A DNA stretch of 64,000 bases from a virus. Lineage: Duplodnaviria; Caudoviricetes. Both the position numbers and the translations under genes were made by a program. The stretch lies in IMG/VR virus record IMGVR_UViG_3300010167_000013. The stretch is one strand, 5' to 3'. The notes beneath the pieces were generated by a model, which saw only the letters and a program-made list of their open reading frames with translations, had not been told where the DNA came from and searched no databases. This document shows, piece by piece, positions 8,021 through 51,103 of the stretch (positions are counted from its first letter, which is position 1; each line of letters begins with the position of its first letter).

Positions 8021-8200
8021 TATCACACACAAATAGAATATGGCATCCCTCTCAGGTTCCTGTGGTTAGACAGGCTATATTTCCGATATGCCCTATCGTA
8101 CTATTGTGCTTCTAATTTATTACTCCTAGTTCATTATTAAATATATTTTTATCCTATTAATCGTAATCCTTCTTTGAGAATATTTTTAGCAGCATTGTAG
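8021..8200 (-). ncRNA. TnpB omegaRNA (reRNA) with 3' guide TATTCTATTTGTGTGTGATA
   Basis: Downstream of tnpB: GTACGATAGGGCATATCGGAAATATAGCCTGT...CAGGAACCTGAGAGGGATGCCA fits the usual IS605 right-end scaffold pattern. The 5' boundary is approximate. Confidence 0.6.
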
Positions 8201-9279
8201 TCTCTATGGTGTTGGATACCACAGCTATCACAGGTCCAATGTTTCAGCCTCAACCCAACATCACCACGATTACCACAATTATTACAGGTCGTACTGGATG
8301 GGTAATACCTATCAACTTTCTGTAGTGTTCTCCCATACCACTCGCACTTGTATTCCAGCTGTCTTACTAGTTCACCTAGGGCTGTGTCATATATCGACTT
8401 ATTGATATCCTTGTACTTGGTTTTCATGCTTTGGATATCTAAATCTTCAATACAGATAATGTCATTGGTGTTAACTAGTGAACTAGTAACTTTGTGTAAT
8501 GTGTCATATCTCTGGTTAGTGATCTTCTCATATATTTTAGCTACCTTGATCCTAGCCTTGTTCCAGTTCTTACTACCTTTTACTTTCCTAGACAGTACTC
8601 TCTGAGCATTAGCTAGCTTGAGTTCATACTGCTTCAGATGCCTGTGGTTTTTGTATGTCTTTCCATTTGATGTAGTAATCAGCTTATTGATACCCAAATC
8701 TAACCCAATGGAGTTACCTGTGATAGGTAGAACCTTTGGTTCTACATCAGTACAACAGATAGAACAGTAGTACTTTCCACTAGGTACCTGTGATATAGTA
8801 GCATTCAGAATCCTACCAGAGATGTCACACCTTCCTCTAAACTTTACACTACCAAGTTTTGGTAGCTTGACAAAGTTACTCACTATCTGAATGTTATTAC
8901 CAGCAACATATTTAGTAGTATAGGACATACTCCTGTTCTTCTTACTCTTGAACCTAGGATAGCCCAGAGTGTCACCTAACTTTACTTTCCTGAAGAAGTT
9001 CTGAAAGGCCATATCTAGATTCTGCAGCGATGCCTGCAGTGCATGGGCATCCGGTTCTTGTAACCATTCCAATTCCTTCTTCAGCTTAGTTAACTCCCTA
9101 CTACAGCTATTGTATGTCATATAGCTCTTCTTCTCTTCATAGGTCTTATTCTCTTCATAGGTCTTATTCCTAAGGCATAAGAAATGGTTCCAAATGTACC
9201 TGCAACAACCAAATGTTTTCTGTATCTGTATTTGCTGTGAGTCATTTGGGTATATCCTAAACTTGTACGATCTATTCAT
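8149..9279 (-). CDS. tnpB: RNA-guided endonuclease TnpB
   Basis: N-terminal SYKFRIYP...KTFGCCRYIWN, RuvC-I GLDLG, RuvC-II IEDL, zinc finger CNNC...CDSC, RuvC-III RDYNAAKNI. Start ATG 9279 behind GGAGGTG. Contains an in-frame 18-bp duplication (NKTYEE x2, 9131-9166). Confidence 0.95.
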   Translation of the reverse strand: MNRSYKFRIYPNDSQQIQIQKTFGCCRYIWNHFLCLRNKTYEENKTYEEKKSYMTYNSCSRELTKLKKELEWLQEPDAHALQASLQNLDMAFQNFFRKVKLGDTLGYPRFKSKKNRSMSYTTKYVAGNNIQIVSNFVKLPKLGSVKFRGRCDISGRILNATISQVPSGKYYCSICCTDVEPKVLPITGNSIGLDLGINKLITTSNGKTYKNHRHLKQYELKLANAQRVLSRKVKGSKNWNKARIKVAKIYEKITNQRYDTLHKVTSSLVNTNDIICIEDLDIQSMKTKYKDINKSIYDTALGELVRQLEYKCEWYGRTLQKVDRYYPSSTTCNNCGNRGDVGLRLKHWTCDSCGIQHHRDYNAAKNILKEGLRLIG

Positions 9280-9301
9280 TATATTCTCACCTCCTACGTA
9301 T

Positions 9302-9310
9302 ATAATATAT
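9302..9310 (-). promoter_or_regulatory. Putative early promoter ATATATTAT driving tnpB
   Basis: Motif about 20 nt upstream of the tnpB start. A second variant (ATATATTCT) lies at 9333-9341. Confidence 0.55.
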
Positions 9311-9422
9311 AATCGAGAAATATGCATATCTAAGAATATATAATTACGTTTTACACTTCATTAGAAGTCTCCAGAACGAAGACATAAGTAATGACATCCC
9401 AATACCCAAGGAGGTTTCTATC

Positions 9423-10895
9423 ATGCCAAACAATAGATTGAGTGATAATCTACTCAGAGACTTATTTGTCTTTGATGATGAAAATAATCCGAAGAGTAGT
9501 CAGATAAGTAGAATATATCCACCAACAATACTGGATCAGGTATTCGACCATCTACATCCAACTCAAAAAAATCTGAGAGAAATACTTGCTGATCTTCGGT
9601 ATGAGATAATAACAGGTGGACTAGGCAATATCGAATTTCCAGTAACTACAGTGAATGGCAAGAGTGGGGATGTTACAGTAACGTCAAACGATGTTGGTCT
9701 TGGTAGAGTAGACAACACCTCTGATATAGATAAACCATTGTCAGTTCCACAGAGAAGCGCTGTGATGGATATATTGTCAGTCTACAACTTCAATATCAAC
9801 TTGGATCCATTGTATGAACACTTGAAGGATACCACTAACCCGCACAGTGTTTCTGTAGACGATTTGAATCTAAATGACAAATTAGTCAAATTTGCAGATG
9901 CTAGGGTTGGACTTCACAATCTTTCTACCAGTAGTAACACACATCCGGATATCAGGAGATTGCTATCCACATTGTGGGATAGGGTAGATGAGATTGATTT
10001 TGGCAGTTCTTCTGGTGGAAGTAGTGGAGGTAGTGGATCTGTAGCGAGTGATTTAGATGGTCATATCAAGGACAAGATGGCCCATTTCGATTTATTTGAG
10101 GGAAGAGAAAATACCAACAACAAGGCTATGATCTTTACTGCCACAATCGACAACAACCACACGATGTATCCAACTACTAGAGCAGTATCGGATTTTATTA
10201 CAGATAGACTTGTTGCGTTCAAGGATACATTACCAAAGATCAATGAATGGATATCAAATATTCAGGTTATCGATAATCAATCAGAACTTCCTGTTGCGAG
10301 CAGTGACAATTACAGACATGCATATATCATAACCAGAGGTCCAGACCCATTCGAGATCGAGAGTGCAATCGCAGTGTGTAGAAGAGATCCATCCGACATT
10401 TACTTCTGGGATATCAAAGGTACAGAAAATGTATCAATATTTGATCCGAAGTATTTCAAGAAAACGGTGAATGGATTATCGTTGGACATTCCAGCCATCC
10501 TAGATACTGACCCTGATGACGGAGAAGAAACAGTTTCCTTCTACGATGTGTTTCTGCGGTCAGTTCAAATACTTCCAGGAACAATGGACGGTCATATCAG
10601 ATATTCGGTCAACAATGATCCTAGTACAATGTCGGATGATGTAAAGATCCCAGGTCTCAATAGTCTTGCATACAGAGAGTGGATTACAGAGAATGAAATA
10701 AAAGAACTTGCTGTGCATGAAAAACATATTCTGAATAAAGCAGTTACTACTCGTACGATTGACGATAGAGCTGTTATAGCTCCAAAGATTTCATGTGCTA
10801 AGGGGAAGATAATAGGAAACCTTGTGAATAGTACAAGTACAGCTCATGAGATAACACTTGAAGAACTAGCGGACGCACTACGTTCACTAATATAA
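9423..10895 (+). CDS. Virion fibre/baseplate-attached structural protein (paralog of 24256-27261 and 35041-39078)
   Basis: Motifs VTTVNGKSGDV, VGLGRVDNTSDIDKPLS, HLKDTTNPHSV and N-terminal YPPT..D.V are shared with the two larger fibre proteins. Confidence 0.65.
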   Translation: MPNNRLSDNLLRDLFVFDDENNPKSSQISRIYPPTILDQVFDHLHPTQKNLREILADLRYEIITGGLGNIEFPVTTVNGKSGDVTVTSNDVGLGRVDNTSDIDKPLSVPQRSAVMDILSVYNFNINLDPLYEHLKDTTNPHSVSVDDLNLNDKLVKFADARVGLHNLSTSSNTHPDIRRLLSTLWDRVDEIDFGSSSGGSSGGSGSVASDLDGHIKDKMAHFDLFEGRENTNNKAMIFTATIDNNHTMYPTTRAVSDFITDRLVAFKDTLPKINEWISNIQVIDNQSELPVASSDNYRHAYIITRGPDPFEIESAIAVCRRDPSDIYFWDIKGTENVSIFDPKYFKKTVNGLSLDIPAILDTDPDDGEETVSFYDVFLRSVQILPGTMDGHIRYSVNNDPSTMSDDVKIPGLNSLAYREWITENEIKELAVHEKHILNKAVTTRTIDDRAVIAPKISCAKGKIIGNLVNSTSTAHEITLEELADALRSLI

Positions 10896-10919
10896 GTTTT
10901 TGAGGAGAGGCCGTGACAA

Positions 10920-13900
10920 ATGATGATGTACAAGTTGGAGAAAGACATATCCCTCTACAAAAATCAATTCGAAGATCTCGTTCTAAATATCTTCCAACGA
11001 CATCTCATGGAAAGACTGTCTATGGATCTTGATGGGTTGTTATTCAGAATAAAATACATGGTGAAGAACGATAAAGATCTAACGAAGCTTCCAGAAATGA
11101 AAAATCAATTCATTTCAAAGGCGCTAGAACTGAGAAGCATCTTCGGAGAAATCATGTACAATTTTCTGGTTGAACTAGTGGGATTCGGAGATAACTTCTC
11201 GAAAGACGATATCGAAGATCTCATGGCTCAAGATGTGAAAATGGATAATGTTCATGTGAGATTCAAAATGCTACTGTTGTCAGAGAATAAGAATTACCTG
11301 GATTATGTTGATGCCAGTATCGAAGATGGAAAAGTGTTCAATATGTTTCCAGATAAGTTCTTCAGGTACTATGTTGACTCATACAATGATGGGATAGCAA
11401 AAGCATATCCAGAATTATTTGAATCTAGACAACAAGACAGCATTGGTACAGGACATGATTCTGAAGTGTTCGTTCATTCTATGACCCTACAAACAACTGA
11501 GGATTGTAATCTCAACTGCTTTCCAGCTGGGACTAAGATCCTTATGGAAGATTTTTCTCACAAGAATATAGAAGATATAGAATTGGGAGACACAGTATTG
11601 GGGTTTGAAGAATTTAATGAATTCCAGCACCAAAGAAGTTTAATATCTACCATAGTTACCCAGTTATTTCACCATGATGAAAGCTGCTACAAGATTAGTC
11701 ATCCATCTTTTAAAGAGGATTTATATGTTACCCCGGAACATCCAATGCTTACAGCCCGCGGAGATTGGATACATGTCCGAGATCTTCGACCATCTGATGG
11801 GTTGCTAATGACAACATTTGACCCTGATGATTATTATCATACTAATGTTGATCATATCAACTATGTGAAAGGATACTTTATAGCTGGATGGCTCGGAGAT
11901 GGTTGTGTTATGAAACGTACCCAAAAAGATGGATATCGGCGATATTTCATGCGTTTTGTGGTCAAAGATATAGACATGACTGAACGAATGAAACGCTTCT
12001 CTGAAACTCTTGGGTTTAATTTCACAACGAATACTTTCAAGATGTCGCACAAAGATGGCTGTTATCGAGATACTTTATATTCAGGCAAGAGAGATGAGTA
12101 CGAAAGATGGGTCAAGCTATGTGAAGAGACATTTTCGGACAAACAAGCACTGAAGGATCCTGATTTTCTAATGGGATTCATGGCTGGATTTTATGATGCT
12201 GAAGGTGGTATCTGGGGTGCATGTATTAGGATTCACAACTCAGATAATAAACTCCTCCGCATTGTGGAGGCTGGTCTTAATTTTCTGAAAATAAAATGGG
12301 ACTATGATAAACCTCACCAGCCAGCTAATAAAATTGTATACACTCTTCGAATATTAGGCGGGTCACCAGATGTCCTAAAGTTTCTGAAATCCACCAGACC
12401 TGCGATTAAGAGGAAAGGTTCAGTCAATTTAGTTGGTAAGAGTTTATTCCAACGTATTGATGGATACACCATCGAGTATGCAAAATATGCAAAAACAGTG
12501 TATAATTTTGAGACGACGGAGCATACTTATATTGCTAACAGACTCCTGGTACACAACTGTAGCTACTGTTATATGTTCAACAAGAGTGATATGAGAATGA
12601 CCTTCGATATAGCCAAGAAATTCATTGATGAGTTATTGGCAGATAGATATGGTTACATCAATCGGTACAACTCTCCAGCGCTGATATTGGAGTTCATAGG
12701 TGGAGAGCCTCTGCTAGAAATTACATTGACAAGAAAAATCTACGAATACTTTCTGGACAGAACGTATGAATTGGAGCATCCATGGTTTAATCTTCACAGA
12801 CTCTCAATATGCTCCAATGGGCTACAATACTTTGATGAAGAAGTTCAATCGTTCTTCAGGGATTATGCCGGTAGTATATCATTCAATATATCCATAGACG
12901 GAAACAAGGAGTTGCATGACTCCTGTAGAATCCAGCCAAGTGGAGAAGGGAGTTATGATATCGACATGATTGCACTTAATCACTTCAACAGACACCATAC
13001 TCCAGAAAGAAATTCTAAAATGACTTTGGCTCCAGACAACATGAGATACTTATTTGATTCAGTAAAAAGCTTCATCGAAAATGGAATGATGACCATCAAC
13101 CTGAATTGTATTTTCGAGGAGGGATGGAACCAAGAAACAGCTCTTCTGGAATACAATGAATTGAAAAAGGTTGCCGATTACATTCTGGAAAATGATCTGG
13201 AGAATTTGTACATTGCTATCTTCAACGAGAGACAAGAAGATACATCAGAAAAGTCATATGACGGGAATTTCTGTTTCAAGGATGGTACTCAGGTGTTAGC
13301 TATCGATGGCCATCGTAACATAGAAGACCTGAATATCAATACTCTCTTGTACACTGCATCTGGTAGCATTCATAAAATTGTCAACATCAGTCAAAGGAAG
13401 TCTAGGAGTAATATGAAGATACATACTTCTGGAACATTTCCTATTGAATGCACTCGTGATCACAAGATATTTGCAAGAAAGATGATCCAAGAAAAAGGAG
13501 AAACATACTACGAAAAACCAGAATTTTATGAAGCTTCAGAACTTGTCGAAGGAGACTCAATCGCTCTTCCAATTCTAGATCTGTCACAGAATAAAAAGAA
13601 TTGGATAAACAACAACATCGCATATGCTCTTGGGGTATACTTACTATGTGGAACGATTAGTATGAATCGCATTGTGGTACCAGTCGATCCAGATAACAAG
13701 GTAGATGTTCGTGAGCATTTTCAGAGAGCCGGACTAAACATAACGACCGACAGACCTGACAGAGTAGAAATATATCGCCAAAAGTCAGAGCTGAACGATA
13801 ACTTCTTCAAACTATGTCTGAGGGCTGGAATTAGACCGAATGTCAAATCAGTTCCACAGATATTATTTGAATCCAAGAAGGATATAATTCAGGCCATGAT

Positions 13901-15866
13901 CAATGGATACTTCCAGGCAGGCGGATTTCAAGTAGCAGAAGGGAAAAACCATGAAGGGTTATTGAAAATAAGCATCATATCGAGACATCTGGCAAATGAT
14001 TTACTAATCCTCCTGAGATCTGTCAATCAATATCCAATATGCACCATGAGTCAAAAACCAATCACAATTGATGTAGATGGATCTAAGATGTCGTTCGATG
14101 AATCATATGGGATATCATATAACCCAATCAACTCATACCTGAAAGATCATTATGAGATAGATCAAGATCACTATGTCGCATGGGTTGGTATCAGATCAAT
14201 TGCATTTGTAAATGACGAATGGGAAGTTTTCTGTCCTACCGTAATGCCGATAAATGAAGGTGAAAAAGAAGAGCACACTATCATTGCAAACAATGCTGCA
14301 GTGAACCAATGTTTTCGTGGTGACATGCAAGTGTTGACGATCAATGGGAGCAAGAATATCAGAGACCTTCATGTTGGAGAACTATTGTATACTGCATCAG
14401 GTAGTATTCACAAAGTAACAAGAATGACAAAACGGTTCAATGAAAGTAATAGGAAGGTAACAGCAGCTGGAATTTTTCCAATTCATTGCACTGATGATCA
14501 CAAGGTATTTGCTAAAAAATTTCTATATATGGGATGGAAAGGTGTTCTTCACTATTCAGACCCAGGGTTCTACCCTATTTCGGAATTGAAGAAAGGTGAT
14601 AGAATGGCACTACCTATACTTCAATTACCAGAAAAACAAGTAGAAAAATGGTTGACTGAAGAACTAGCATATGCATTTGGAGTATATCTTGCAGATGGTC
14701 ATGGTTACACAGATAGTATAGTTATTACTCCAGGATATGATGACGACAAGAGTTACATGAATATGCTCAGAGGGTCTGGACTAACAATAAGTGTGAGTGA
14801 AATGCGTACCAGCATGAGGTATGATATTCACAAAAATTCATCTGAAGCAAATAGAAAGTTTATCGAACTATGTCTGATGTCTGGTGTTACATCCTGGACC
14901 AAACATATCCCAGAAACTATTTTCAACTCACCAAAGAATATTGTCCAGAAAGTTCTTGATGGATACCTGGAAACTGATGGATGGCAAGTTCCAGAAGATA
15001 AACATATTGCAGGAATGATCAAAGTCAATACGGTCTCTCAACATCTTGCTAGTGATATTCTAGTTCTTCTACGAGCTGTCGGAGAGTACCCTACTTGTTA
15101 CCTAAATAACAGGGCTGGTACTATGATCATTGAGGGTAGAACTGTAAATGTGCGAGATCGATATGAAATATATTATAACCCGACTAGGCCCAATGGGAAT
15201 AATATGTTTAAGAATGATGATCAATATAGTCTGATGTGGACAGGGATCAGAGATATTCAAAATGATGAAAACTATGATGTATATTGTCCTACAGTATCCC
15301 CTCTCACAAACGACCTAAAAGAAGAGCATTCCATAATTGTTAATGGTCTCGGTGCCCAGAACTGCGGCGGGACTGGAGCAATGTTATCATTAAGACCAAA
15401 TGGACAGTTCTATCCATGTATCAGATACATGCCATCTTCTGTTGGAGATAATGTAGATGATCTTTGCATTGGGACTGTGCAAGATGGAATGGTAGGAAGG
15501 GAAGAAAACTCTGAGGTTCTAAAATTATTAGACAGTGTAACACGTAGATCTCAATCTAATGATATATGTTATAAGTGTCCTATTGGAAATGACTGTGCTC
15601 ATTGCTCAGCGATGTCGCAGACAGTTTATGGAACTCCTAACAAAAAAGGATCTTTCATTTGTATTCAGATGATAGCAGAAGCACTAGCAAATGTTTATTA
15701 TTGGAATAGATTGTTGATTCATAAACCTCATTACGATCTTCCAGTTCGCAAGAATAATGTTCCTGACGAATGGTCGTTACTAGTGGTAGATGAAGTAGAA
15801 TTAGAAAACTTAAAGCTTCTTGAATGTATGGCGATGATCAAAAAAATAGAATACAGTGGGACTTAA
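10920..15866 (+). CDS. Radical SAM/SPASM peptide maturase, CXXX-repeat-target type (TIGR04115-like), with three inteins; about 604 aa after splicing
   Basis: Spliced sequence gives TLQTTEDCNLN|CSYCY, EFIGGEPLLE, HPWFNLHRLSICSNG, ISIDGNKELHDSCR, NF|CGGTGAML...FYPCIRY and CYKCPIGNDCAHCSA...FICIQ. Confidence 0.85.
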   Translation: MMMYKLEKDISLYKNQFEDLVLNIFQRHLMERLSMDLDGLLFRIKYMVKNDKDLTKLPEMKNQFISKALELRSIFGEIMYNFLVELVGFGDNFSKDDIEDLMAQDVKMDNVHVRFKMLLLSENKNYLDYVDASIEDGKVFNMFPDKFFRYYVDSYNDGIAKAYPELFESRQQDSIGTGHDSEVFVHSMTLQTTEDCNLNCFPAGTKILMEDFSHKNIEDIELGDTVLGFEEFNEFQHQRSLISTIVTQLFHHDESCYKISHPSFKEDLYVTPEHPMLTARGDWIHVRDLRPSDGLLMTTFDPDDYYHTNVDHINYVKGYFIAGWLGDGCVMKRTQKDGYRRYFMRFVVKDIDMTERMKRFSETLGFNFTTNTFKMSHKDGCYRDTLYSGKRDEYERWVKLCEETFSDKQALKDPDFLMGFMAGFYDAEGGIWGACIRIHNSDNKLLRIVEAGLNFLKIKWDYDKPHQPANKIVYTLRILGGSPDVLKFLKSTRPAIKRKGSVNLVGKSLFQRIDGYTIEYAKYAKTVYNFETTEHTYIANRLLVHNCSYCYMFNKSDMRMTFDIAKKFIDELLADRYGYINRYNSPALILEFIGGEPLLEITLTRKIYEYFLDRTYELEHPWFNLHRLSICSNGLQYFDEEVQSFFRDYAGSISFNISIDGNKELHDSCRIQPSGEGSYDIDMIALNHFNRHHTPERNSKMTLAPDNMRYLFDSVKSFIENGMMTINLNCIFEEGWNQETALLEYNELKKVADYILENDLENLYIAIFNERQEDTSEKSYDGNFCFKDGTQVLAIDGHRNIEDLNINTLLYTASGSIHKIVNISQRKSRSNMKIHTSGTFPIECTRDHKIFARKMIQEKGETYYEKPEFYEASELVEGDSIALPILDLSQNKKNWINNNIAYALGVYLLCGTISMNRIVVPVDPDNKVDVREHFQRAGLNITTDRPDRVEIYRQKSELNDNFFKLCLRAGIRPNVKSVPQILFESKKDIIQAMINGYFQAGGFQVAEGKNHEGLLKISIISRHLANDLLILLRSVNQYPICTMSQKPITIDVDGSKMSFDESYGISYNPINSYLKDHYEIDQDHYVAWVGIRSIAFVNDEWEVFCPTVMPINEGEKEEHTIIANNAAVNQCFRGDMQVLTINGSKNIRDLHVGELLYTASGSIHKVTRMTKRFNESNRKVTAAGIFPIHCTDDHKVFAKKFLYMGWKGVLHYSDPGFYPISELKKGDRMALPILQLPEKQVEKWLTEELAYAFGVYLADGHGYTDSIVITPGYDDDKSYMNMLRGSGLTISVSEMRTSMRYDIHKNSSEANRKFIELCLMSGVTSWTKHIPETIFNSPKNIVQKVLDGYLETDGWQVPEDKHIAGMIKVNTVSQHLASDILVLLRAVGEYPTCYLNNRAGTMIIEGRTVNVRDRYEIYYNPTRPNGNNMFKNDDQYSLMWTGIRDIQNDENYDVYCPTVSPLTNDLKEEHSIIVNGLGAQNCGGTGAMLSLRPNGQFYPCIRYMPSSVGDNVDDLCIGTVQDGMVGREENSEVLKLLDSVTRRSQSNDICYKCPIGNDCAHCSAMSQTVYGTPNKKGSFICIQMIAEALANVYYWNRLLIHKPHYDLPVRKNNVPDEWSLLVVDEVELENLKLLECMAMIKKIEYSGT
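11517..12557 (+). mobile_element. Intein 1 (347 aa) with LAGLIDADG homing endonuclease, inside the CxxxCxxC motif
   Basis: Starts CFPAGT, block B TPEHP, endonuclease motifs IAGWLGDG and MAGFYDAEG, ends LLVHN before Cys. Confidence 0.92.
13272..14309 (+). mobile_element. Intein 2 (346 aa), ends in Gln, degenerate endonuclease
   Basis: Starts CFKDGT, block B TRDHK, ends AAVNQ. The LAGLIDADG positions read GVYLLCG and NGYFQAGG (acidic residues lost). Confidence 0.85.
14310..15362 (+). mobile_element. Intein 3 (351 aa), directly abutting intein 2
   Basis: Starts CFRGDM, block B TDDHK, endonuclease motifs GVYLADG and DGYLETDG, ends GAQN before CGGTG. Confidence 0.88.
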
Positions 15867-15879
15867 TAGTCCCACTGTA
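15852..15879. terminator. Bidirectional terminator
   Basis: TACAGTGGGACT-TAAT-AGTCCCACTGTA between convergent genes. Confidence 0.65.
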
Positions 15880-15883
15880 GATT

Positions 15884-16399
15884 TTATATATTTTCTATCA
15901 ACTCATTTGGGTCATCATCCATAAGCTGTTTCAGACTCCATGGTGAGTCTATAGGAATCTTCCTGATATAGTCCACATTGATTCTATACTCTTTAGGATT
16001 CTTCTCTAAGATTCTTTTGAATTCGTTCCTAGCACGTATGTAAGCTAAGGGAGCATCAGTATGTTTTACAATGTTAAGATCTCGATCTTCTGCGTCCCAT
16101 TTCGTTATAATAGTAATCTGTTTACGGGCTTCTTCAATCTCATCAAGTAAGTTACTGTGACCATAGATATTATCACCATATTTCAATTTGAATAAATGCA
16201 CAATGATAACAGTCACATATGATGTAGCTCTATTTCCGTCACTTCTAACGGAAGCTTCAGAATATAATTCTTCATCATATGCTTCATTGAATGGAATACC
16301 TTGTTGAACTGCCTCAAGTGCTCTCTTGATACGACCCAACTCATCAGTAGTTCTATTGAGTCTATCCAATGCTTCTAGTAGCATTTCCTTTTCATTCAT
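15884..16399 (-). CDS. DUF29-like protein
   Basis: IIVHLFKLKY...IP.DSPWSLKQLM. Clear paralog of 45039-45554. Confidence 0.6.
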   Translation of the reverse strand: MNEKEMLLEALDRLNRTTDELGRIKRALEAVQQGIPFNEAYDEELYSEASVRSDGNRATSYVTVIIVHLFKLKYGDNIYGHSNLLDEIEEARKQITIITKWDAEDRDLNIVKHTDAPLAYIRARNEFKRILEKNPKEYRINVDYIRKIPIDSPWSLKQLMDDDPNELIENI

Positions 16400-16423
16400 T
16401 TAACAACCCTCCTACTATATTTA

Positions 16424-16858
16424 TCATTTGATCGATGGCAATTGTTTTACCCAGGTGGATAACAAACTCAGCATAGTGAAATATTCAGTATCGCCCATAT
16501 GTCTAATGTATCTACCTTTAGAGCCATCCTTCACATAAAACATAGGAGGAATGTTCCTGGTAAGTTCTTCATACGGTTCCCTAAAGAGAATATACATTTC
16601 GCCCACAGTAGTCCATGAATGAGATGAACAGCATCCAATAGTTTTATACCCCTTGCGGTTGAGAGTAAATACGATGTCAATCATATTCTCGTCTATCCTA
16701 ATGATACTTCCACTACAAGACATGGTAGGACAGAATTCCTCATGTTCTTCTATAAAGTCCCCAATTTCTTTGTTGTATGGAACTAATAACGTTTTTGCTC
16801 TAGGAAATTGTGTATGAACATTGTAGATCGTATTACATACTAAACATACCGGTATCAT
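16424..16858 (-). CDS. Hypothetical Cys-containing protein
   Basis: CLVC, CPTMSC, LNRKGYKTIGCCSSH. RBS GGAGG. Confidence 0.65.
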   Translation of the reverse strand: MIPVCLVCNTIYNVHTQFPRAKTLLVPYNKEIGDFIEEHEEFCPTMSCSGSIIRIDENMIDIVFTLNRKGYKTIGCCSSHSWTTVGEMYILFREPYEELTRNIPPMFYVKDGSKGRYIRHMGDTEYFTMLSLLSTWVKQLPSIK

Positions 16859-16883
16859 TTATTCTACCTCCTTCTCTATGTAT

Positions 16884-16892
16884 ATAATATAT
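16884..16892 (-). promoter_or_regulatory. Putative early promoter ATATATTAT
   Basis: About 25 nt upstream of the ATG at 16858. Confidence 0.55.
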
Positions 16893-16956
16893 AATTGAAT
16901 GAAGGATGATACGAAACCGAGATTATAAAGGAACATGTCATAATGGAGGTGATTGC

Positions 16957-19900
16957 GTGAATAGGGATTTATACTCGAATACAGAGTTTACCAAATTGAA
17001 GGAAGACTTGAATAAAGAAATAAAAAGACGGGCCACATTCAAGTGGTGGGACCCACTAGCTACTCCAAAGGTAGGACAGGATAGATCATCCCCATTATCG
17101 TTACCTGATATCGGAAAAAGAATGTTGGTAACAGATGAAACTTACACCATCAACAATTCTTCTGAGGGATCTATTGAATGTACTAGAAACATACACTATC
17201 CTGCTCATGGGGAGAATCCTTCTGGAGAGATACCAAATACCCCCTTGAATAACAAAGAAGGACAACTCAAGACTTCCGCTGCCAGATTAGATGCCGATGA
17301 GATAAAAAACTATCTGGTTGGATTGTCGAAGATAATGGACATAAATCTTTTCTATGGAAGAGATGAAGTTCCTGGCACTGCATTTCGTGATCCTATTGGA
17401 ATAGAGAATGCATTGAAAGCTGCTCAGAATAGCAAGCTGAATGCTCCACTTCATCAATCTGATATTGAACCAGCAAGAATAGATCCTAGCAAGGAAGATC
17501 TAACTGTTGTAACATATCATATTGATGGTGGGATATATGTAATGCCATCTGGAGAATACGATGGGGAGGAACTATTGAAGAAGATGGGTCCTGATGAAAC
17601 CAACTTCTTTGATGATCACGGAGCTAAGGTATATGATACCGGGAAGAAAACTCCTGATGGACAACCTATTTTGGTAAGTGATTCTAACTACAAGCCAATG
17701 AATCCGTTTGTATCTCCTCTTGTTAATAGAAACTGGAATGATCAACAGAATAGTCGTGAAGATCTTCCAACCAAAAGAGAAGAGGGTGGAGTTCCATCTA
17801 CTAGGTTTGGCCCTAATCCTAGAAATCCTCAGCAGGGAAATCAGTACAGACCTAGACCTGTATTCGGCGGAGTTCTTGGAGCATGTAATTCATCGTGCAC
17901 AGGATTATGTTTTAAGACATGTGATAATGAATGCAGTGAGAATTGCACTACAACGTGCTGGTCTAGATGTGGCAACGCTTGCACGTCAAGCTGCGGGAAT
18001 GTCTGTACCGGGTGCAACTCGATGTGCTATACCTCCTGTAAAACTAAATGCGAAAATAGCACGGGATATTCATGCCTGAATGTTGGAGCCAAGACAGTAA
18101 ACATAGTTCCTGTTGGTAGTGCTCACGGATCATCTGGTGCACCGGGATCAGCTACCTGGCCAAAAAACACAATATCATATACTACCTACAAATGTAATGG
18201 TTGCGCATATACATGTCAATTCTACCCGAATAAACGTACCACATGTTGGGATGCAGGTTGTCAGGAGTTATGTTTCACGTCATGCAGAACAGCATGTTCC
18301 ACAACATGCTTTGGAGGATGTATAGATAACGCTGCTCAGGATACTGGGAAGTACGGAACTGGAAAAGGCCGTGGATGTTCTAGTGGATGTACTGTCAACT
18401 GTGTAGGAGCTTGTCAAGGAGTATGCATAGGCGAATGCGTTCACACATGCTTCCATGCATGCAAGGCGTTATGCTACGATAACTGTTCGTGGAAATGTCA
18501 TACCAGCTGTGGATCCGGTTGTGCCAATGGATGTAAAAACGGATGTACTGGATGTCACTCAACATGCGCTGGTAGTTGTATTGGAGAAAACAATGCATCC
18601 ATATGTATTGGATGTGGAAAATCTGGTGGATGTACATCTACATGCCAACATGATTGCAATAAGAATTGTATCGGCTGGGGATGTAGATCAATATGTGGAA
18701 CAGAATCGGCTGGATCTTGTGAATCTAATTGTCGTCTGAGTTGTATGTCATCTTCATGCACTTCAATGTGTGGAAATGCTTGTGCGTCTCAATGTACAAC
18801 ATGTGTGAATAACTGTGGAGCTCAATGCGGGTGTTGTTCATCGATGTGTAGCACTGGATGTGAAGCTGCATGTAATATTACATGCACTGAAGAATGTCAG
18901 AATGCATGTACTACATATTGTTACATGTCATGCACTGAATCCTGTGGAAGTTGTTTCAAAGCAGGTACATTAATAGAAACTGAACTTGGACTTGTCCCCA
19001 TCGAGGAGGTTAAAGTAGGGGATATGGTTTTAACACAAAGCGGAAAATATCATAGAGTTTATAAAAATTTTGTAAGAGAAGCTAATGATATTATCTCTAT
19101 TAGAGCAGTAGGAACTCCAATAATTCATACCACAGAAGAACATCCGTTCTGGGTTAAGAAATATATTGGCTTAGGAAAAAAAGAAGGGAAACTTCAACAG
19201 TTGTATTCAGATCCAGAATGGGTGGAAGCTAGAGATCTTAAATCTCGTGATAAATTATCATTGTATACACCTCCAATTGGAAATATTGAAGTTGATCCTG
19301 GTATAGCTTATATGGTCGGAAGGTGGCTTGGAGACGGATGGAGAAGCGATGAAAAAAGCCATAATGGACAATATTATCCAAGGTTTAGTATTTGCTGTGG
19401 AAAACATGAAATAGATGATTTCGAACTTAAATTATATCAATCTAATATTGAATATACTAAATCTACTAAAGAGACATCAGATAATTATAGGATACCATCT
19501 ATGATTACCAGGGATAGGTATTGGTGTAATAATGATGAACTTATTTCAATCCTAAAAGAATGCGGAAAATATTCTTATGGTAAAAAAATAAGTAAAGAAA
19601 TTTACAATTGGAATATAAATTCATTGATGCATTTACTTCAAGGGTATTCTGATGCAGATGGACATTTCGATGAAGATCATTCATCAATTGTAATCTCAAC
19701 TGTAAGTAAAGAGCTTGCTCTTGGAGTATCAACTATTATGAGAATGATTGGAAGAAATCCATCATGCCATGTGAAAGAATATCCTACCGGCAAAATGTAT
19801 ATTGAAGGCCGTGAAGTTAACGTAAGAACTGTATACACTTTAAAAATGTTTACGGGAGAATATACCAGAAATTATTCTGAATATGATTATGATAATAATA

Positions 19901-20784
19901 CGACATGGTCTAGTGTTAGATTAGTAAATATTCCGGATGATTCATATACTGTATATAATTTATCAGTAGAAGACAATCCAACATTCTATGCTGATGGAGT
20001 TTTGGTTCATAATTGCTCGGATATGTGCTATTCATGTGTTGGAATGTGCATCGGTATTTGTTCGGTGAAATGTGAGAACGGATGTTCATCGTGTGATACC
20101 AACTGTGGATGGTGGTGCGACTCTACATGCAACAGACAATGTTTCAATAATTGTAGCGACAGATGCATCAGCACATGCAGTGGATCATGTAGTACTTACC
20201 TTGAAGCTAATACAACCACACCACTCTCTGGTCCAGAGAAACCACCAACATCAGAAGGATATCAAACACCAAATCCATCAGATAGAGAAGAAGAAAGAGA
20301 ATCATTCAAATTAATCTCCTCTGATGTAAAACCAAAACCACCAGTAACACCACCTGGTGAAAAAGATTACTTGGTCCATGTATTCGCTGATAAAGATAAC
20401 AACTTCCAAGTTGTATCTCCGTATGATGTGATAAAATGGATGATTCACTCAACAGTTTGCATCGGTGGAGTGTGGAGCATATACGAGGATACTGGAGAAG
20501 TATTTGCTGTAAGTGCTGCACTATCTGCAACACTGGTCCAAATGTATCCGAACATCGATGGTGGTAGAGGAATTATATTGATAACTCTGTTTGATAATCC
20601 TGAGTTCCCAATTAACCCATTCAAGGATATCTATGTTGAACTTCCAAGAAATCTTGAATACAAGATAATTCCAAACGTAGAAGGAGACATCATAATTCTA
20701 ATCCAGAGAGAATCCTTTGGACCATTCGAAACTGTCATTGACGAATACGGAAAGATGAGATTTATTCAAGGAATCAGGGAGTGA
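16957..20784 (+). CDS. Large Cys-rich CxxxC-repeat protein, putative radical SAM modification target, with one intein
   Basis: About 89 Cys (hand count), mostly in CxxxC/CxxC register. Probable GTG start at 16957 behind GGAGGT. Lies about 1 kb downstream of the maturase. Confidence 0.8.
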   Translation: MNRDLYSNTEFTKLKEDLNKEIKRRATFKWWDPLATPKVGQDRSSPLSLPDIGKRMLVTDETYTINNSSEGSIECTRNIHYPAHGENPSGEIPNTPLNNKEGQLKTSAARLDADEIKNYLVGLSKIMDINLFYGRDEVPGTAFRDPIGIENALKAAQNSKLNAPLHQSDIEPARIDPSKEDLTVVTYHIDGGIYVMPSGEYDGEELLKKMGPDETNFFDDHGAKVYDTGKKTPDGQPILVSDSNYKPMNPFVSPLVNRNWNDQQNSREDLPTKREEGGVPSTRFGPNPRNPQQGNQYRPRPVFGGVLGACNSSCTGLCFKTCDNECSENCTTTCWSRCGNACTSSCGNVCTGCNSMCYTSCKTKCENSTGYSCLNVGAKTVNIVPVGSAHGSSGAPGSATWPKNTISYTTYKCNGCAYTCQFYPNKRTTCWDAGCQELCFTSCRTACSTTCFGGCIDNAAQDTGKYGTGKGRGCSSGCTVNCVGACQGVCIGECVHTCFHACKALCYDNCSWKCHTSCGSGCANGCKNGCTGCHSTCAGSCIGENNASICIGCGKSGGCTSTCQHDCNKNCIGWGCRSICGTESAGSCESNCRLSCMSSSCTSMCGNACASQCTTCVNNCGAQCGCCSSMCSTGCEAACNITCTEECQNACTTYCYMSCTESCGSCFKAGTLIETELGLVPIEEVKVGDMVLTQSGKYHRVYKNFVREANDIISIRAVGTPIIHTTEEHPFWVKKYIGLGKKEGKLQQLYSDPEWVEARDLKSRDKLSLYTPPIGNIEVDPGIAYMVGRWLGDGWRSDEKSHNGQYYPRFSICCGKHEIDDFELKLYQSNIEYTKSTKETSDNYRIPSMITRDRYWCNNDELISILKECGKYSYGKKISKEIYNWNINSLMHLLQGYSDADGHFDEDHSSIVISTVSKELALGVSTIMRMIGRNPSCHVKEYPTGKMYIEGREVNVRTVYTLKMFTGEYTRNYSEYDYDNNTTWSSVRLVNIPDDSYTVYNLSVEDNPTFYADGVLVHNCSDMCYSCVGMCIGICSVKCENGCSSCDTNCGWWCDSTCNRQCFNNCSDRCISTCSGSCSTYLEANTTTPLSGPEKPPTSEGYQTPNPSDREEERESFKLISSDVKPKPPVTPPGEKDYLVHVFADKDNNFQVVSPYDVIKWMIHSTVCIGGVWSIYEDTGEVFAVSAALSATLVQMYPNIDGGRGIILITLFDNPEFPINPFKDIYVELPRNLEYKIIPNVEGDIIILIQRESFGPFETVIDEYGKMRFIQGIRE
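17884..20190 (+). repeat. CxxxC amino-acid repeat array, interrupted by an intein
   Basis: For example CNSSCTGLCFKTCDNECSENCTTTCWSRCGNAC and CSDMCYSCVGMCIGICSVKC. Confidence 0.9.
18952..20013 (+). mobile_element. Intein 4 (354 aa) with LAGLIDADG endonuclease
   Basis: Starts CFKAGT, block B TEEHPF, motifs VGRWLGDG and LQGYSDADG, ends VLVHN before Cys. Confidence 0.92.
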
Positions 20785-20788
20785 AACC

Positions 20789-21070
20789 ATGGGGAAAATA
20801 ACAAGTGTCTACTATCAGGAAATTGATCCAAAAATAGTAGACATTCAAACAGCTGGAGAATTTTATTACAATCACAATCTTCTAGATGTTCATGAGATGT
20901 TCCATGATGATTATGAGAGATCTGAAATAGAACAACTAAATCTACGCAACATACTTCTAGGAGAAGCCATCAAATGCGAGGATATACAAGGAAATGTCAA
21001 AGTTGACAGCAGTATACTTGCAATATCTTCACTGAAAAATAAAGTTGTATTAGTTGCTGAATTACGATAA
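20789..21070 (+). CDS. Hypothetical protein coupled to the Cys-rich gene
   Basis: Starts 4 nt after the upstream stop and is followed by a terminator. Confidence 0.6.
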   Translation: MGKITSVYYQEIDPKIVDIQTAGEFYYNHNLLDVHEMFHDDYERSEIEQLNLRNILLGEAIKCEDIQGNVKVDSSILAISSLKNKVVLVAELR

Positions 21071-21074
21071 AAAA

Positions 21075-21102
21075 GAAGAGGTGGGACATGTCCCACCTCT
21101 TC
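21075..21102. terminator. Perfect palindrome / terminator
   Basis: GAAGAGGTGGGACATGTCCCACCTCTTC. Confidence 0.65.
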
Positions 21103-21110
21103 ATCTATTA

Positions 21111-21391
21111 TCATATTGCTCGCATCATATTAAATTGAGACTGCCTCACCGTGTCTAGTGTACTGTTCATAAGTGCGAATATTTTACTGGCTATCGATCC
21201 TCATCGATACCATCCTTGAGAGCCTGCAGGATGTCCCAAGCTTCATGATCATACTCGTCTGCCAATCCTCCCCAGCACAATATCTCTAGAGGATCCCAAA
21301 TATCAATAATTTCTTTTACTTTTCTAAACATCGCTCTATCTCGTTCACTTGAGTTAGTCAACATTTCTTTCAATTTAGACATATTTTTCAC
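21111..21391 (-). pseudogene. DUF1871-like gene, probably frameshifted
   Basis: WDPL...DEYDHE motif. The ORF stops at 21191, but a one-base shift continues as IASKIFALMNSTLDTVRQSQFNMMRAI*. Early promoter motif at 21416-21424. Confidence 0.45.
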
Positions 21392-21446
21392 CTCACTGGA
21401 GCTTCAATCTAGTATATAATATATAATTACATTTATGAACTATACG

Positions 21447-21480
21447 TTACACAGTGGGAGCACGTGCTCCCACTGTGTAA
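21447..21480. terminator. Perfect palindrome / terminator
   Basis: TTACACAGTGGGAGCACGTGCTCCCACTGTGTAA. Confidence 0.7.
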
Positions 21481-21485
21481 TATTT

Positions 21486-21803
21486 CTATACCTCTTCTAT
21501 TATTTCAACTTTGTTCTTGTCTACTTCCCAGGAGTTGTAGTTCCAGACATACCTTCTGGAATTATATTTGGCTGGTACAAATTCTTTGGTGATCTTGAGC
21601 TTGATGGCTTCTATTTTTGATGTTATCGGAATGAGGCTACTTTCAGCCTGTTCATATTTCTCTGGATCATTTATTAGCTGTAATAATAGCCTTTCTCGAA
21701 TAACTTGCTTGGTTAGCAGCTCTGAAAGTTCTTGAGCTAACTCTTCAGGTATTTCAAAATAGTCGATTACCGTAGCAACTTTTTCTTTCATAAAATAATT
21801 CAC
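21486..21803 (-). CDS. Small helical protein, possible CXXX-repeat modification system accessory protein (TIGR04116-like)
   Basis: About 100 aa with the pattern IPEE...EL..L...EKYEQ...TSK...WEVD...V.II, near the Cys-rich gene. The resemblance is from memory only. Confidence 0.4.
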   Translation of the reverse strand: MNYFMKEKVATVIDYFEIPEELAQELSELLTKQVIRERLLLQLINDPEKYEQAESSLIPITSKIEAIKLKITKEFVPAKYNSRRYVWNYNSWEVDKNKVEIIEEV

Positions 21804-28113: not shown

Positions 28114-28457
28114 CTATCCTCCCCATACATAAATATACTAATCACTAAGTTGTCGTCCAGTATGTGTGGTTCTGGAGGAAGGTTATTGTGTGTCTTAGAT
28201 CTACCGAACTTGTTGTGGTGGTACAACCTCACACAATTTCTGATGATATCATTTCCATACTTTGTGTCATTGATATATGCTAATTCATTGATGGTGAGTA
28301 AGGTTTCTCCGTCATAACTATTGAGGTCCTTCATCGTGACAATGTAATCAATAACAGTGGCTAGGACTTCTTCAGTGGTTCCGAATTCTCTGAATTGATT
28401 TACCAGATCTAGTGAGAGTTTCTTATCCAGTGTAGATTGATTTACTGACATTCGCAA
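28110..28457 (-). CDS. Hypothetical protein in the radical SAM operon
   Basis: Overlaps the end of the radical SAM gene. Confidence 0.6.
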   Translation of the reverse strand: MRMSVNQSTLDKKLSLDLVNQFREFGTTEEVLATVIDYIVTMKDLNSYDGETLLTINELAYINDTKYGNDIIRNCVRLYHHNKFGRSKTHNNLPPEPHILDDNLVISIFMYGEDR

Positions 28458-29773
28458 CCAACCTCCCCTAGATCCAAATATGCATTTATCAAATAATCAC
28501 GGTAGGTATCTCCCTTATTTTTGATTAGTGCATCAAGTATTCCTAGTTCATCATAGTACTCATACAAGAATTTGAACTTGGATTGATATAATTTGCATAC
28601 TGATTCCACTGGCATGAATACTTCCTTGTTGGTCTCATAGTTGGAACCTAGGCAACCTTTTGTACAGAACGATTTGATTGGACATGAATAGCACTTCAGC
28701 TGAAATGCTGCTGGAAGAGATTTGATCGATAGATACTGTGTCACAAATTCCCCTTCGATATCAATAATCTTTTCTTGGTTTTCATCCAAGATAAACCTAC
28801 CAGCTATGAATTCTGGATACATCAATCGGTGACATGGAACTACAGTTAGGTCTGCCATTCTGACAGCTATTGATTTCTGAATGCTGCATGATATTGCATC
28901 GTCGTATCTTTTATTGGCATTTCTAAGAATCAATGCAGTAATGTCTTCTGGTCCATTCACTAAGTTATCAACATATCTCTTAGCATCGTAGTCAAAATAT
29001 TCCATCTTTTTGTCTATCATATGTTTCAGAAAGTTGATATAGTGAGCGATGGATTCCTCTGTCCATCCATCGTTCCTTACTTCCAACATATTTAGTTTGA
29101 ATTTCTCCCCATGATCACCGAGCATTTCGATGAACCAATCCCAGTTGTCAGGCCATTCCTCAATATTGTTATGATGCACCATCGCATGAAAGCTATAATT
29201 ATACTTCCTTGCAAATGCCATGAGTTTCTCGTAGTACTCATCGCCTCTGGACTGATTCTTACTCTTGTATGGTCTATTACATTCCATGAACTTCCCGTCA
29301 TCAGAGATAGATAGATATACTCGTTTACTGGTATCAATGAACTTCTCAACGATATCTTCGACTCTTCTTGTCTTCTCATCATCCAGGATAAAAGAATAGT
29401 TTGTTGGAATATCAACATACTGGAACAGAGTTGGGCACTCTATCATTTTCTGGTGAACTAGATCTAGTACCTGGAATCCTATTTCTTGAGAAAATATTTC
29501 TCCAGAGAAAAGGGACAACCTACCTTGGTACTCATTCTCTATCAAGAAGTCTAAAAATATTTCAGTATTCCTCAGAATGCTTTCACCGTTCTCAAATACA
29601 GATGATGGATACAGTTGATGCCCATATCTATGCATGTAACAGTAGGTGCATGCCTGATCACATTCTGGTGATAGTATGAGTTCAATGGATGGGATTGAAT
29701 TATTAGCCCCACTGAGACCTCTCATCAGATAACTCTTCAAGAGCAAATCATTTTCCTTCTGATATGATATCAT
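28442..29773 (-). CDS. Radical SAM protein with SPASM domain
   Basis: CDQACTYC, LFSGE, ISDDG. SPASM cysteines SCSIQ...VPCHR...CYSCPIKSFCTKGCLG...VCK. Confidence 0.88.
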   Translation of the reverse strand: MISYQKENDLLLKSYLMRGLSGANNSIPSIELILSPECDQACTYCYMHRYGHQLYPSSVFENGESILRNTEIFLDFLIENEYQGRLSLFSGEIFSQEIGFQVLDLVHQKMIECPTLFQYVDIPTNYSFILDDEKTRRVEDIVEKFIDTSKRVYLSISDDGKFMECNRPYKSKNQSRGDEYYEKLMAFARKYNYSFHAMVHHNNIEEWPDNWDWFIEMLGDHGEKFKLNMLEVRNDGWTEESIAHYINFLKHMIDKKMEYFDYDAKRYVDNLVNGPEDITALILRNANKRYDDAISCSIQKSIAVRMADLTVVPCHRLMYPEFIAGRFILDENQEKIIDIEGEFVTQYLSIKSLPAAFQLKCYSCPIKSFCTKGCLGSNYETNKEVFMPVESVCKLYQSKFKFLYEYYDELGILDALIKNKGDTYRDYLINAYLDLGEVGCECQ

Positions 29774-31236: not shown

Positions 31237-31391
31237 TAGAATGCCTCTTTTCTTTTCTACCATCCGATTACTAGTAATTAATGACATACTCACAGTATTT
31301 TCCTGATGGTTGAAATTTTATATCATTGGTCTACCATCACGAGGAATTTATACTGATACATAATATTCAACCTAATGAGGGAGTGATAATA

Positions 31392-33046: not shown

Positions 33047-33523
33047 TTATTTGCCCGGAGTATATGAACCGCCATTGTACGAAGATTGTACACTAGATTG
33101 CACAGGACTATTGTTAGCTGGACATGAATCGTAAGATGAATCATGAGAGTTACAAGTAGCGTAATTACTACCGCCATAATAGCTAGAAGTATTTACAGGG
33201 CTATTGTGTGCACATGGTACAGTCTCTTTAGAGTTTAACCAAGTTTCCATAGTTGCAAGGCGAGATGCCTGAATGAGAGTGCTGTTTGCTGTAACATTCC
33301 CACCAGCATTTGCTACAGCCCCAAGAGCACTTATAGTACCAAGAGTATTATACCCAGCTATGACACTATTCATTTCAGCTGCACTAACTGGGTTAGAATT
33401 CATAGATGCAAATGTATAATTTGATAGCTGGTGTTTTGTTCGTAGATTATTTATTGCAGTTCGAATATTAGTTAGTTGAGCAGATTGAACTACCGAGTTG
33501 CTAGTTGTTAGTGAGAGTGCCAT
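33047..33523 (-). CDS. Small fibre-like protein with a Ser/Asn/Tyr/Cys repeat tail; candidate radical SAM substrate
   Basis: N-terminal helices SAQLTNIRTAIN, VSAAEMNSVIAG and IQASRLATMETWL. Tail CAHNSPVNTSSYYGGSNYATCNSHDSSYDSCPANNSPVQSSVQSSYNGGSY. Confidence 0.55.
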   Translation of the reverse strand: MALSLTTSNSVVQSAQLTNIRTAINNLRTKHQLSNYTFASMNSNPVSAAEMNSVIAGYNTLGTISALGAVANAGGNVTANSTLIQASRLATMETWLNSKETVPCAHNSPVNTSSYYGGSNYATCNSHDSSYDSCPANNSPVQSSVQSSYNGGSYTPGK

Positions 33524-48876: not shown

Positions 48877-48910
48877 CTCCTAATTATATTTTTATTTTAT
48901 CTCATATTCA

Positions 48911-48957
48911 TAATATATAATTCTAAGTATAATATATAATTCTAAGTATAATATATA
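48911..48957 (-). repeat. 19-bp tandem repeat (about 2.4 copies), each copy carrying the early promoter motif
   Basis: TAATATATAATTCTAAGTA x2 plus TAATATATA. Confidence 0.8.
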
Positions 48958-49024
48958 CGTTTAATCCGTTAACCAACCTAATAAAGGTGAACAAGTAATA
49001 TTATATAAAGAAGAGGTGTGAAAG

Positions 49025-51044: not shown

Positions 51045-51091
51045 TCTAATACCTCCTAAAATATATTATATTTTTTATTCTATCTAACGTA

Positions 51092-51103
51092 ATAATATAT
51101 TAT
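51092..51103. promoter_or_regulatory. Palindromic, bidirectional early promoter motif
   Basis: AATAATATATTATT contains ATATATTAT on both strands, between divergent genes. Confidence 0.5.

Follow-up and report, generated by a model that had tools for sequence, protein, structure and literature searches.

QhpD, a SPASM radical SAM (S-adenosylmethionine) enzyme, introduces several Cys thioethers into QhpC, a subunit of about 80 amino acids (aa) which carries three cross-links to Asp/Glu and stays in a larger assembly, the periplasmic enzyme quinohemoprotein amine dehydrogenase. Among phages, the HK97 capsid chainmail hardens the particle through autocatalytic Lys-Asn isopeptide cross-links. PapB (freyrasin), CteB (SCIFF) and CcpM also combine radical SAM and SPASM domains; PapB forms repeated Cys thioether rings spanning four residues, and enzymes of its type join the Cys sulfur to an alpha or a beta carbon, with the regiochemistry dictated by the substrate (PMC12373016). 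Another family, TIGR04115, is named in NCBIfam the "radical SAM peptide maturase, CXXX-repeat target family"; this family, the target family PF27846 and phrog_6085 have been catalogued by bioinformatics and their products are uncharacterised. In this work we have analyzed a 64-kb part of a large gut phage, the 64,000-nucleotide IMG/VR record IMGVR_UViG_3300010167_000013 (the window), in which a first reading of the letters alone (the sequence-only reading) had noticed a radical SAM gene close to a giant protein with CxxxC repeats. The locus is best described as a phage copy of the CXXX-repeat radical SAM system, with one enzyme and one very large dedicated substrate; we hold the account as a whole, including thioether bonds and a tail appendage, to be somewhat better than an even proposition.

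The locus shares with the TIGR04115/PF27846 (TIGR04114-type) system the enzyme clade, the repeat with Cys at every fourth residue, an N-terminal helix motif of the target, the close placement of enzyme and target genes and the tail-fibre setting known from Clostridia. It differs from that system in its target, which at 921 aa is two to five times longer (the family median is 240 aa) and has an N-terminal domain of ~310 aa, an added C-terminal domain of ~195 aa and a fixed number of 89 Cys; in its enzyme, which has an N-terminal domain of 185 aa of its own instead of a separate helper of ~110 aa; in its four inteins; and in its carrier, a phage of 179 kb or larger and not a P2-like prophage. 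PapB scores best among the characterised families, but the phage enzymes are not members of it (150-159 bits for the orthologues against a cut-off of 340) and the substrate is without Asp at +4. Unlike in ranthipeptide and sactipeptide systems, the substrate is not a short leader-core peptide and no protease or exporter was found in the clusters examined; a classical cluster for a peptide made on ribosomes and modified after translation (RiPP) is also not what the locus resembles, given a target of 921 aa and no peptidase or transporter family nearby in the window, in the giant-phage contigs L001-L003 or in locus L055. The difference from QhpD/QhpC lies in the up to 89 candidate sites and in the phage setting; compared with HK97, the enzyme is separate and of the radical type, the chemistry is that of Cys and the part concerned is presumably in the tail.

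A similar arrangement on a smaller scale is found in the cultured Salmonella phage SPN3US (NC_027402.1), where two ORFs (open reading frames) of ~133 aa with an N-terminal helix and ~20 Cys in CxxxC register follow a 'virion structural protein' gene and precede two radical SAM genes. One of them (L088:6073-6471; 133 aa, 21 Cys in CxxxC register) is unannotated and adjoins the similar ORF, which is partly annotated (gp100). The family phrog_6085, comprising SPN3US-like Cys-repeat proteins, matches the Cys module of the long relatives discussed below. These phages differ from the phage analyzed here in having small targets and Enterobacteria as hosts, and the SPN3US enzymes are only ~25% identical to TIGR04115 members.

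The maturase and its inteins

The gene at 10920-15866 (+) encodes a radical SAM/SPASM maturase precursor of 1648 aa, which corresponds to 604 aa without three inteins, as judged by TIGR04115 and by alignment to intein-free orthologues. In hidden Markov model (HMM) searches the window protein scores 295.5 bits on TIGR04115, below the curated cut-off of 350 bits, because the three inteins break the match; when two of its extein pieces were scanned separately, with a few flanking intein residues, they gave 232.2 and 79 bits. Two orthologues without inteins, found on related phage contigs and sharing 67% and 70% identity with the window enzyme, score 364.5 and 352.7 bits. The SPASM model TIGR04085 is matched with 28.1 bits (cut-off 27), and the seven SPASM Cys (C1482, C1500, C1550, C1553, C1559, C1562 and C1581) align with Cys that are invariant in the family. 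The next best family is PapB (NF047865), with 117.5 bits for the window protein; on the orthologues it is followed by CcpM and then by HxsB (uncharacterised), with the SCIFF maturase and QhpD (76-86 bits, the QhpD model being TIGR03906) just behind, and the sulfatase-maturase and cyclophane families score below the thioether formers.

The match to TIGR04115 starts only at residue 186-187 of the orthologues. The preceding ~185 aa (10920-11474, +) form an extra domain specific to the giant-phage clade, for which AlphaFold predicts, with a pLDDT (predicted local distance difference test) of 82.5, a hairpin, three helices, a second hairpin and a helix. No known fold was recognized in this model: Foldseek returned nothing, the best VIA-align hits were generic helical bundles (Z 6.8) and TM scores in the Atlas search stayed below 0.5.

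Insertion points of the enzyme inteins were defined by alignment with the two intein-free orthologues. Intein 1 (aa 200-546; 11517-12557, +) lies inside the CxxxCxxC motif (C196-NLN / intein / C547-SY-C550), at a site which is uninterrupted in the orthologues (C-SLN-C-TY-C), and it matches Intein_splicing, Hom_end_hint and LAGLIDADG_3 of Pfam; splicing brings C196, C547 and C550 together as CNLNCSYC and so restores the SAM-cluster motif. Intein 2 (aa 785-1130; 13272-14309, +; DGNF / CFKDG...AAVNQ / C) and intein 3 (aa 1131-1481; 14310-15362, +; CFRGD...GAQN / C1482-GGTG) stand head to tail with zero extein residues between them and are 40% identical to each other, and C1482, the residue after intein 3, is the first SPASM Cys. 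Intein 2 ends in Asn-Gln and not in the usual His-Asn, and its +1 nucleophile is Cys1 of intein 3. The fourth intein (ORF aa 683-1036; 18952-20013, +; SCGS / CFKAG...VLVHN / CSDMC) interrupts the Cys-rich target immediately before a Cys, matches Hint_2, Intein_splicing and LAGLIDADG_3 and is 28% identical to intein 3. The NCBIfam models for the N- and C-terminal intein regions are matched as well. These elements are identified as inteins by their terminal residues, by their Hint and endonuclease domains and by being insertions when compared with homologues that lack them; the Gln end of intein 2 is the unusual feature. Since inteins sit in the SAM-cluster motif and at the first SPASM Cys, the SAM cluster and the first auxiliary cluster of the enzyme can form only after splicing.

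The Cys-ladder target and its pairing with the enzyme

The Cys-rich ORF begins 1039 nt beyond the stop codon of the enzyme gene and encodes the target, a protein of 1275 aa when counted from GTG 16957 (16957-20784, +) and of 921 aa after splicing; the frame is open from ATG 16906, which would give 1292 aa. GTG 16957 is most likely the true start, because a GGAGGTGA ribosome-binding site lies 5 nt upstream, the homologue consensus MNxxLYSN begins there and so does the ESM Atlas record. Three parts make up the spliced protein: the N-terminal domain of ~310 aa, a ladder whose 89 Cys fall between ORF residues 327 and 1095, and the mainly beta-stranded C-terminal domain of ~195 aa (20191-20784, +). 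The intein divides the ladder into a first part (ORF aa 327-682; 17884-18951, +) and a second part (ORF aa 1037-1095; 20014-20190, +). Successive Cys are spaced by exactly four residues (CxxxC) in 68 of the 88 steps, and no other ORF in the window has more than three CxxxC units.

A search with the N-terminal domain found 139 homologues on gut-metagenome contigs of up to 292 kb, all of them with PF27846. The match to PF27846.1 ("rSAM target Cxxx repeat") is recorded on the window protein (P0004), which is listed on a contig of 178,815 bp, and on all 120 homologues listed, being weak or faint where it was graded. The NCBIfam target models gave no match, for which composition filtering may be the reason. 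The 120 homologues have a median of 89 Cys, and gaps of 4, 3 and 5 residues occur 68, 9 and 3 times with near-constant numbers. An alignment of 89 intein-free sequences contains 78 invariant Cys columns, eight that are nearly so and several conserved motifs of other residues within the ladder, which by these alignments is a fixed architecture and not a loose stretch of low complexity. In the 120 homologues Ser, Thr, Asn and Gly predominate at the x positions, with Asp and Glu accounting for ~5%.

The target was found together with the maturase in every relative examined. The order fibre-like gene, maturase, target and a gene of ~92 aa is kept in L001, L002, L003 and a 292-kb contig, and related phage contigs with this order have sizes of roughly 75-290 kb; the gap between maturase and target is 28-29 nt in two of three placed contigs and ~430 nt in L001. 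When clusters of targets and enzymes were compared, about 25 pairs had longest contigs of the same size (e.g. 289336, 167472 and 224525 bp), which indicates that both genes lie on the same contigs; a Cys-ladder ORF was also seen beside more distant enzymes of 35-48% identity. In the set of isolated phages, TIGR04115-type enzymes (~40% identity) were present in two unannotated faecal phage contigs only, and a search of INPHARED with the DNA of the locus and with the N-terminal domain of the target as protein gave no match. Phage contigs L005 and L089, which carry the enzyme-target pairing, give correct translations only if TAG is taken for Gln; the system is therefore present in stop-codon-recoded phages as well. 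Their gene neighbourhoods show that the two genes are inherited together across phages, and the enzyme and the Cys protein very probably form a dedicated pair.

The same pairing extends to bacterial genomes. When one genome of each prokaryotic species was scanned with an enzyme profile, 80 loci were obtained, almost all from Clostridia and other anaerobes of the gut, and 77 of them contain a Cys-ladder ORF encoded on the strand of the enzyme gene, in most cases no more than 2 kb away. Most of these targets have an N-terminal domain of ~103 aa followed by a ladder that runs to the C-terminus; they range from ~160 to 650 aa around the median given above, with up to 145 Cys. Metagenome bins labelled Methanobrevibacter, Treponemataceae, Slackia and Raoultibacter (L049, L022, L051 and L054) also contain TIGR04115-type enzymes with Cys-ladder ORFs, which may reflect either host range or binning error.

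The first ~40 aa of the phage target (…EFTKLKEDLNKEIKRR…WWDPL…) are homologous to the N-terminal domain of prophage targets (…F-x-x-LKAKVKAEM-x-RR…YDF…), with an hhalign probability of 83% (E 8.9e-6) and hmmsearch E-values down to 2.4e-6, and the two Arg of the motif are invariant. This conserved segment (ORF aa 21-58; 16966-17079, +; ...EFTKLKEDLNKEIKRR...) is the best candidate for an element bound by the maturase machinery, because it is shared ahead of otherwise divergent proteins. On the enzyme side, a helical helper of ~110 aa with no family assignment directly precedes the enzyme gene in 72 of the 80 loci, and in at least seven cluster representatives it is fused to the enzyme N-terminus, the position taken by the extra domain in giant-phage enzymes. 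Homology of the helper to that domain or to the 93-aa gene behind the target was not found (4.5 bits in hmmsearch; hhalign probability 6.9%, for the N-terminal domain only), and the enzyme domain is a counterpart of the helper in position only. Complex prediction for the N-terminal domains of enzyme and target returned a score of 0.01 and no answer, which weighs neither way.

The sequence-only reading had been right about the main parts of the locus. It had counted a protein of ~920 aa after splicing, about 1 kb behind the enzyme gene, with some 89 Cys in CxxxC register between two non-repetitive domains, and had given the enzyme an extra N-terminal domain of ~180 aa; all of this agrees with the figures above. 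Its suggestion that the latter domain could recognise the substrate gains indirect support from the helper, which other lineages have fused in the same position. The membership of the enzyme in the TIGR04115 clade, for which it had proposed an HMM search, is supported by the intein-free orthologues that exceed the cut-off, and the co-occurrence of the two genes, which it had wished to see across genomes, is general among the relatives.

Chemistry of the ladder

Maturation would begin with the removal of the four inteins, three from the enzyme and one from the target. The enzyme would then dock on the N-terminal helix of the target (F-x-x-L-K-x-x-h-x-x-E-h-x-R-R), probably through its own N-terminal domain, and by repeated cleavage of SAM would generate 5'-deoxyadenosyl radicals that take hydrogen from a carbon near each Cys. 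The Cys sulfur would bond to that carbon to give a thioether, and the enzyme would proceed along the ladder, leaving a covalently braced rod between two folded domains that should tolerate reductants and proteases. The braced target would finally become part of a tail appendage, along with the fibre-like product of the upstream gene.

The thioether chemistry is proposed because the nearest characterised relatives of the enzyme (PapB, CcpM, the SCIFF maturases and QhpD) form thioethers, and by this analogy the bonds are probably, if by no wide measure, of this type. Acceptors known from ranthipeptides include Thr and Asn, and in sactipeptides any residue can accept; the Ser, Thr, Asn and Gly at the x positions of the ladder are plausible acceptors.

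AlphaFold modelling of the homologue P0005 gave a pLDDT of 70-93 for the end domains and below 50 for the ladder, and the failure to model the ladder is compatible with a fold that needs either cross-links or ligands. A different use of the Cys should be weighed, in which the ladder is a metal- or Fe-S-binding array, or holds disulfides, and the enzyme makes few modifications or acts as a cluster-loading chaperone. About one in four residues is Cys over ~400 residues, as in metallothioneins, AlphaFold cannot fold the ladder without ligands, and the phage encodes a GroEL-type chaperonin and two more radical SAM proteins, which would fit an investment in Fe-S proteins. To our knowledge, however, a Cys spacing of i, i+4 is not a classical cluster-binding motif of the CxxCxxC or CxC type, and a SPASM maturase co-inherited in 77 of 80 loci would be superfluous for simple metal binding. 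All characterised neighbours of the enzyme family, moreover, bond covalently to the Cys sulfur (family names; PMC12373016), and we regard such an array as unlikely.

The bit scores of the enzyme also leave some room for another radical reaction on the ladder, such as the conversion of Cys to formylglycine, epimerisation or the formation of C-C bonds, after which reactive aldehydes or other groups would cross-link or bind the receptor. The anaerobic sulfatase maturase model TIGR03942 matches the enzyme with 44-55 bits, as do several models of cyclophane-forming SPASM maturases, and the product of the TIGR04115 family is itself uncharacterised; the closest-scoring characterised families are nevertheless thioether formers and Cys is the only invariant feature of the substrate repeat, so reactions of this kind appear distinctly improbable.

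Tail setting of the module

In the window the maturase unit is headed by a gene for a fibre-like structural protein of 490 aa (9423-10895, +), assigned by its PHROG match: PHROG tail-fibre and minor-tail families cover its aa 42-114 with a best E-value of 1.3e-9. The protein encoded ahead of the maturase in L002 has 648 aa and shares 44% identity with it. Many other ORFs of the window match PHROG tail-fibre, virion-structural, exonuclease and chaperonin families.

A comparable setting is met in bacterial prophages. The locus of Anaerobacterium chartisolvens DSM 27016 reads GpU, Baseplate_J, Tail_P2_I, tail-collar fibre, Cys-ladder protein, genes of 185 aa and 112 aa, maturase and endolysin, i.e. 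a textbook myovirus tail module around a canonical member of TIGR04115 (458 bits). With profiles seeded from it, genes for the myovirus baseplate or fibre were detected in 41 of the 80 loci, and among the remaining 39, of which the largest neighbours were sampled and pooled across loci, endolysins, tail-fibre PHROGs, collagen repeats, Peptidase_S74, Sipho_Gp37 and integrase were encountered. Within prophages the module usually stands between tail-fibre and lysis genes; cultured isolates that carry it in prophages are A. chartisolvens DSM 27016, Neglectibacter timonensis SN17 and Desnuesiella massiliensis.

Fusions of the Cys module in relatives add surface-type domains to this picture. It is part of a larger protein with a ConA-like lectin domain on a TAG-recoded phage contig with three flanking radical SAM genes, and of a 1679-aa protein with Listeria-Bacteroides (Flg_new) repeats beside an intein-bearing radical SAM gene on a contig with a T4-type portal gene; it is also joined to a piece of the Peptidase_G2 tailspike family and to a glucodextranase B domain. 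The placement of enzyme-target pairs beside tail-fibre genes suggests enzymatic cross-linking of a tail part. Gene context, the adhesin-type fusions and the neighbours in the window, L001-L003 and L055, among which no peptidase, exporter or immunity gene was seen, favour a structural, surface-exposed role over a secreted peptide, and the product of the target gene probably sits in the virion.

The position of the prophage modules between tail-fibre and lysis genes can be read in another way, as accessory or cargo genes commonly gather at the fibre-lysis junction of temperate phages. The target might then be cargo near the tail genes and not a part of the virion: a RiPP-like product of the infected or lysogenic cell that acts as a toxin or signal, kills competitors or counters defence. 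The NCBIfam name of the enzyme, a "peptide maturase", and the failure of Foldseek (PDB/BFVD) and VIA-align to find structural similarity to virion proteins are in keeping with this. Against it stand the neighbourhoods just described, free of peptidase, exporter and immunity genes, the targets themselves, which measure 160-1900 aa and have folded extra domains, in some cases of the lectin or surface-repeat type, the fibre-like gene at the head of the operon in the giant-phage clade and the recurrence of the setting across unrelated tail types, recoded phages and a phage with a T4 portal. We consider the cargo role rather unlikely.

The fibre-lysis junction is one of several points that weigh against a thioether-braced tail part. 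The reaction is extrapolated from relatives whose models score far below their own cut-offs on the phage enzymes, for a family with uncharacterised products, and the Cys-X3-Asp arrangement of PapB was ruled out as the main pattern, the +4 residue being Cys in 68 of the 88 steps. Models give no confident fold for the ladder, and neither end domain of the target appears to resemble a known virion protein: Foldseek searches with the N- and C-terminal domains of P0005 against PDB and BFVD gave no match at E <= 0.001, the wide VIA-align search reached a best Z of 4.8, the ESM Atlas feature search with both domains produced no usable match, and PHROG and Pfam contain no match to either. By sequence comparison the helper family and the N-terminal domain of the giant-phage enzyme are without demonstrable homology. 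The place in the virion, finally, is read from gene context and from domain fusions in relatives.

With regard to gene order, the sequence-only reading had placed the radical SAM gene 24 nt behind a fibre-type gene (9423-10895, then 10920-15866), as is indeed the case, and its setting in a block of tail-fibre genes recurs in relatives, where a fibre-like gene likewise heads the unit. The "small accessory genes" it had listed behind the target were confirmed in part: the 93-aa gene is conserved and belongs to the transcription unit of the target, the others do not share this standing. Two further statements have to be corrected. Known TIGR04115 systems are not as a rule paired with short bacterial peptides, as 77 of the 80 loci pair the enzyme with proteins of 160-650 aa, largely in prophage tail modules, and the idea that this phage scaled up RiPP chemistry is not supported, large substrates and a phage-tail setting being the rule of the family. 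What sets this phage apart is a target of such size and fixed design with an added C-terminal domain, together with the N-terminal domain of the enzyme and the inteins.

The remaining features of the locus concern its transcription units and neighbours. A strong hairpin with a 12-bp stem (15852-15879) overlies the maturase stop codon and is likely to be a two-way terminator. Between maturase and target two genes on the minus strand (15884-16858), encoding 171 aa with DUF29 and 144 aa, are missing from relatives, in which the maturase and target genes are adjacent or at most ~430 nt apart. Directly 3' of the target the conserved 93-aa protein (20789-21070, +) is 39% identical to the product of a 92-aa gene in the equivalent place of L002; a gene of 91-92 aa follows the target in four of four relatives inspected, and Pfam, PHROG and NCBIfam scans of the 93-aa protein gave no family match. 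A second strong hairpin with a 12-bp stem (21075-21102) closes the target unit. A sigma-70 promoter scan gave 52 sites as compared with 49 in shuffled sequence, and no temporal class could be inferred from it. Divergent intergenic regions (~9340-9400, 16860-16900, 48880-49020 and 51050-51130) share an AT-rich element of the type TATATAATATATAAT, of which one copy sits ahead of the target gene; it may be the phage's own promoter.

Just 5' of the fibre-like gene lies a gene of the TnpB/IS605 OrfB type (8149-9327, -; Pfam OrfB_IS605, Cas12f1-like TNB and HTH_OrfB_IS605), and the GroEL-type chaperonin is encoded at 55064-56962 (phrog_5725, E 1.4e-66). A second cassette (28442-31293, -) contains two overlapping radical SAM genes for proteins of 507 aa and 443 aa, the latter with a SPASM domain, both with PapB as the best NCBIfam match (~50 bits). 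The N-terminal helix (…LTNIRTAINNLRTKH…) of a nearby 158-aa protein (33047-33523, -) is reminiscent of the target motif, and the Ser/Asn/Tyr-rich tail of this protein has three Cys; with the cassette it may form a second enzyme-target set.

Implications for phages of anaerobes

In the library searched, no paper was found that describes this kind of virion modification; "CXXX repeat" occurred in no paper found and "TIGR04115" in one unrelated paper only. Of two ranthipeptide papers, the first contains an antiSMASH ranthipeptide call of unnamed cluster type and the second deals with SCIFF clusters. Genome-mining tools likely count such loci as peptide natural-product clusters, while most of those examined are prophage tail modules. 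The system is open to experiment, as cultured prophage carriers and intein-free enzyme-target pairs exist, and an enzyme that may process ~90 sites on one protein is of interest for redox-stable, protease-resistant protein materials.

It is possible, if short of an even chance, that the whole TIGR04115 family is a phage-tail maturation system in which dozens of thioether staples turn a Cys ladder into a braced rod or tip at the tails of phages that infect gut anaerobes; this would add a new class of enzymatic post-translational modification of virions, with 89 sites on one 921-aa protein in the phage described here. If the account given here is true, a widespread and uncharacterised radical SAM family would acquire a function. 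Phages of strict anaerobes would then harden a tail part by radical-enzyme cross-links, independently of oxygen or disulfide chemistry.

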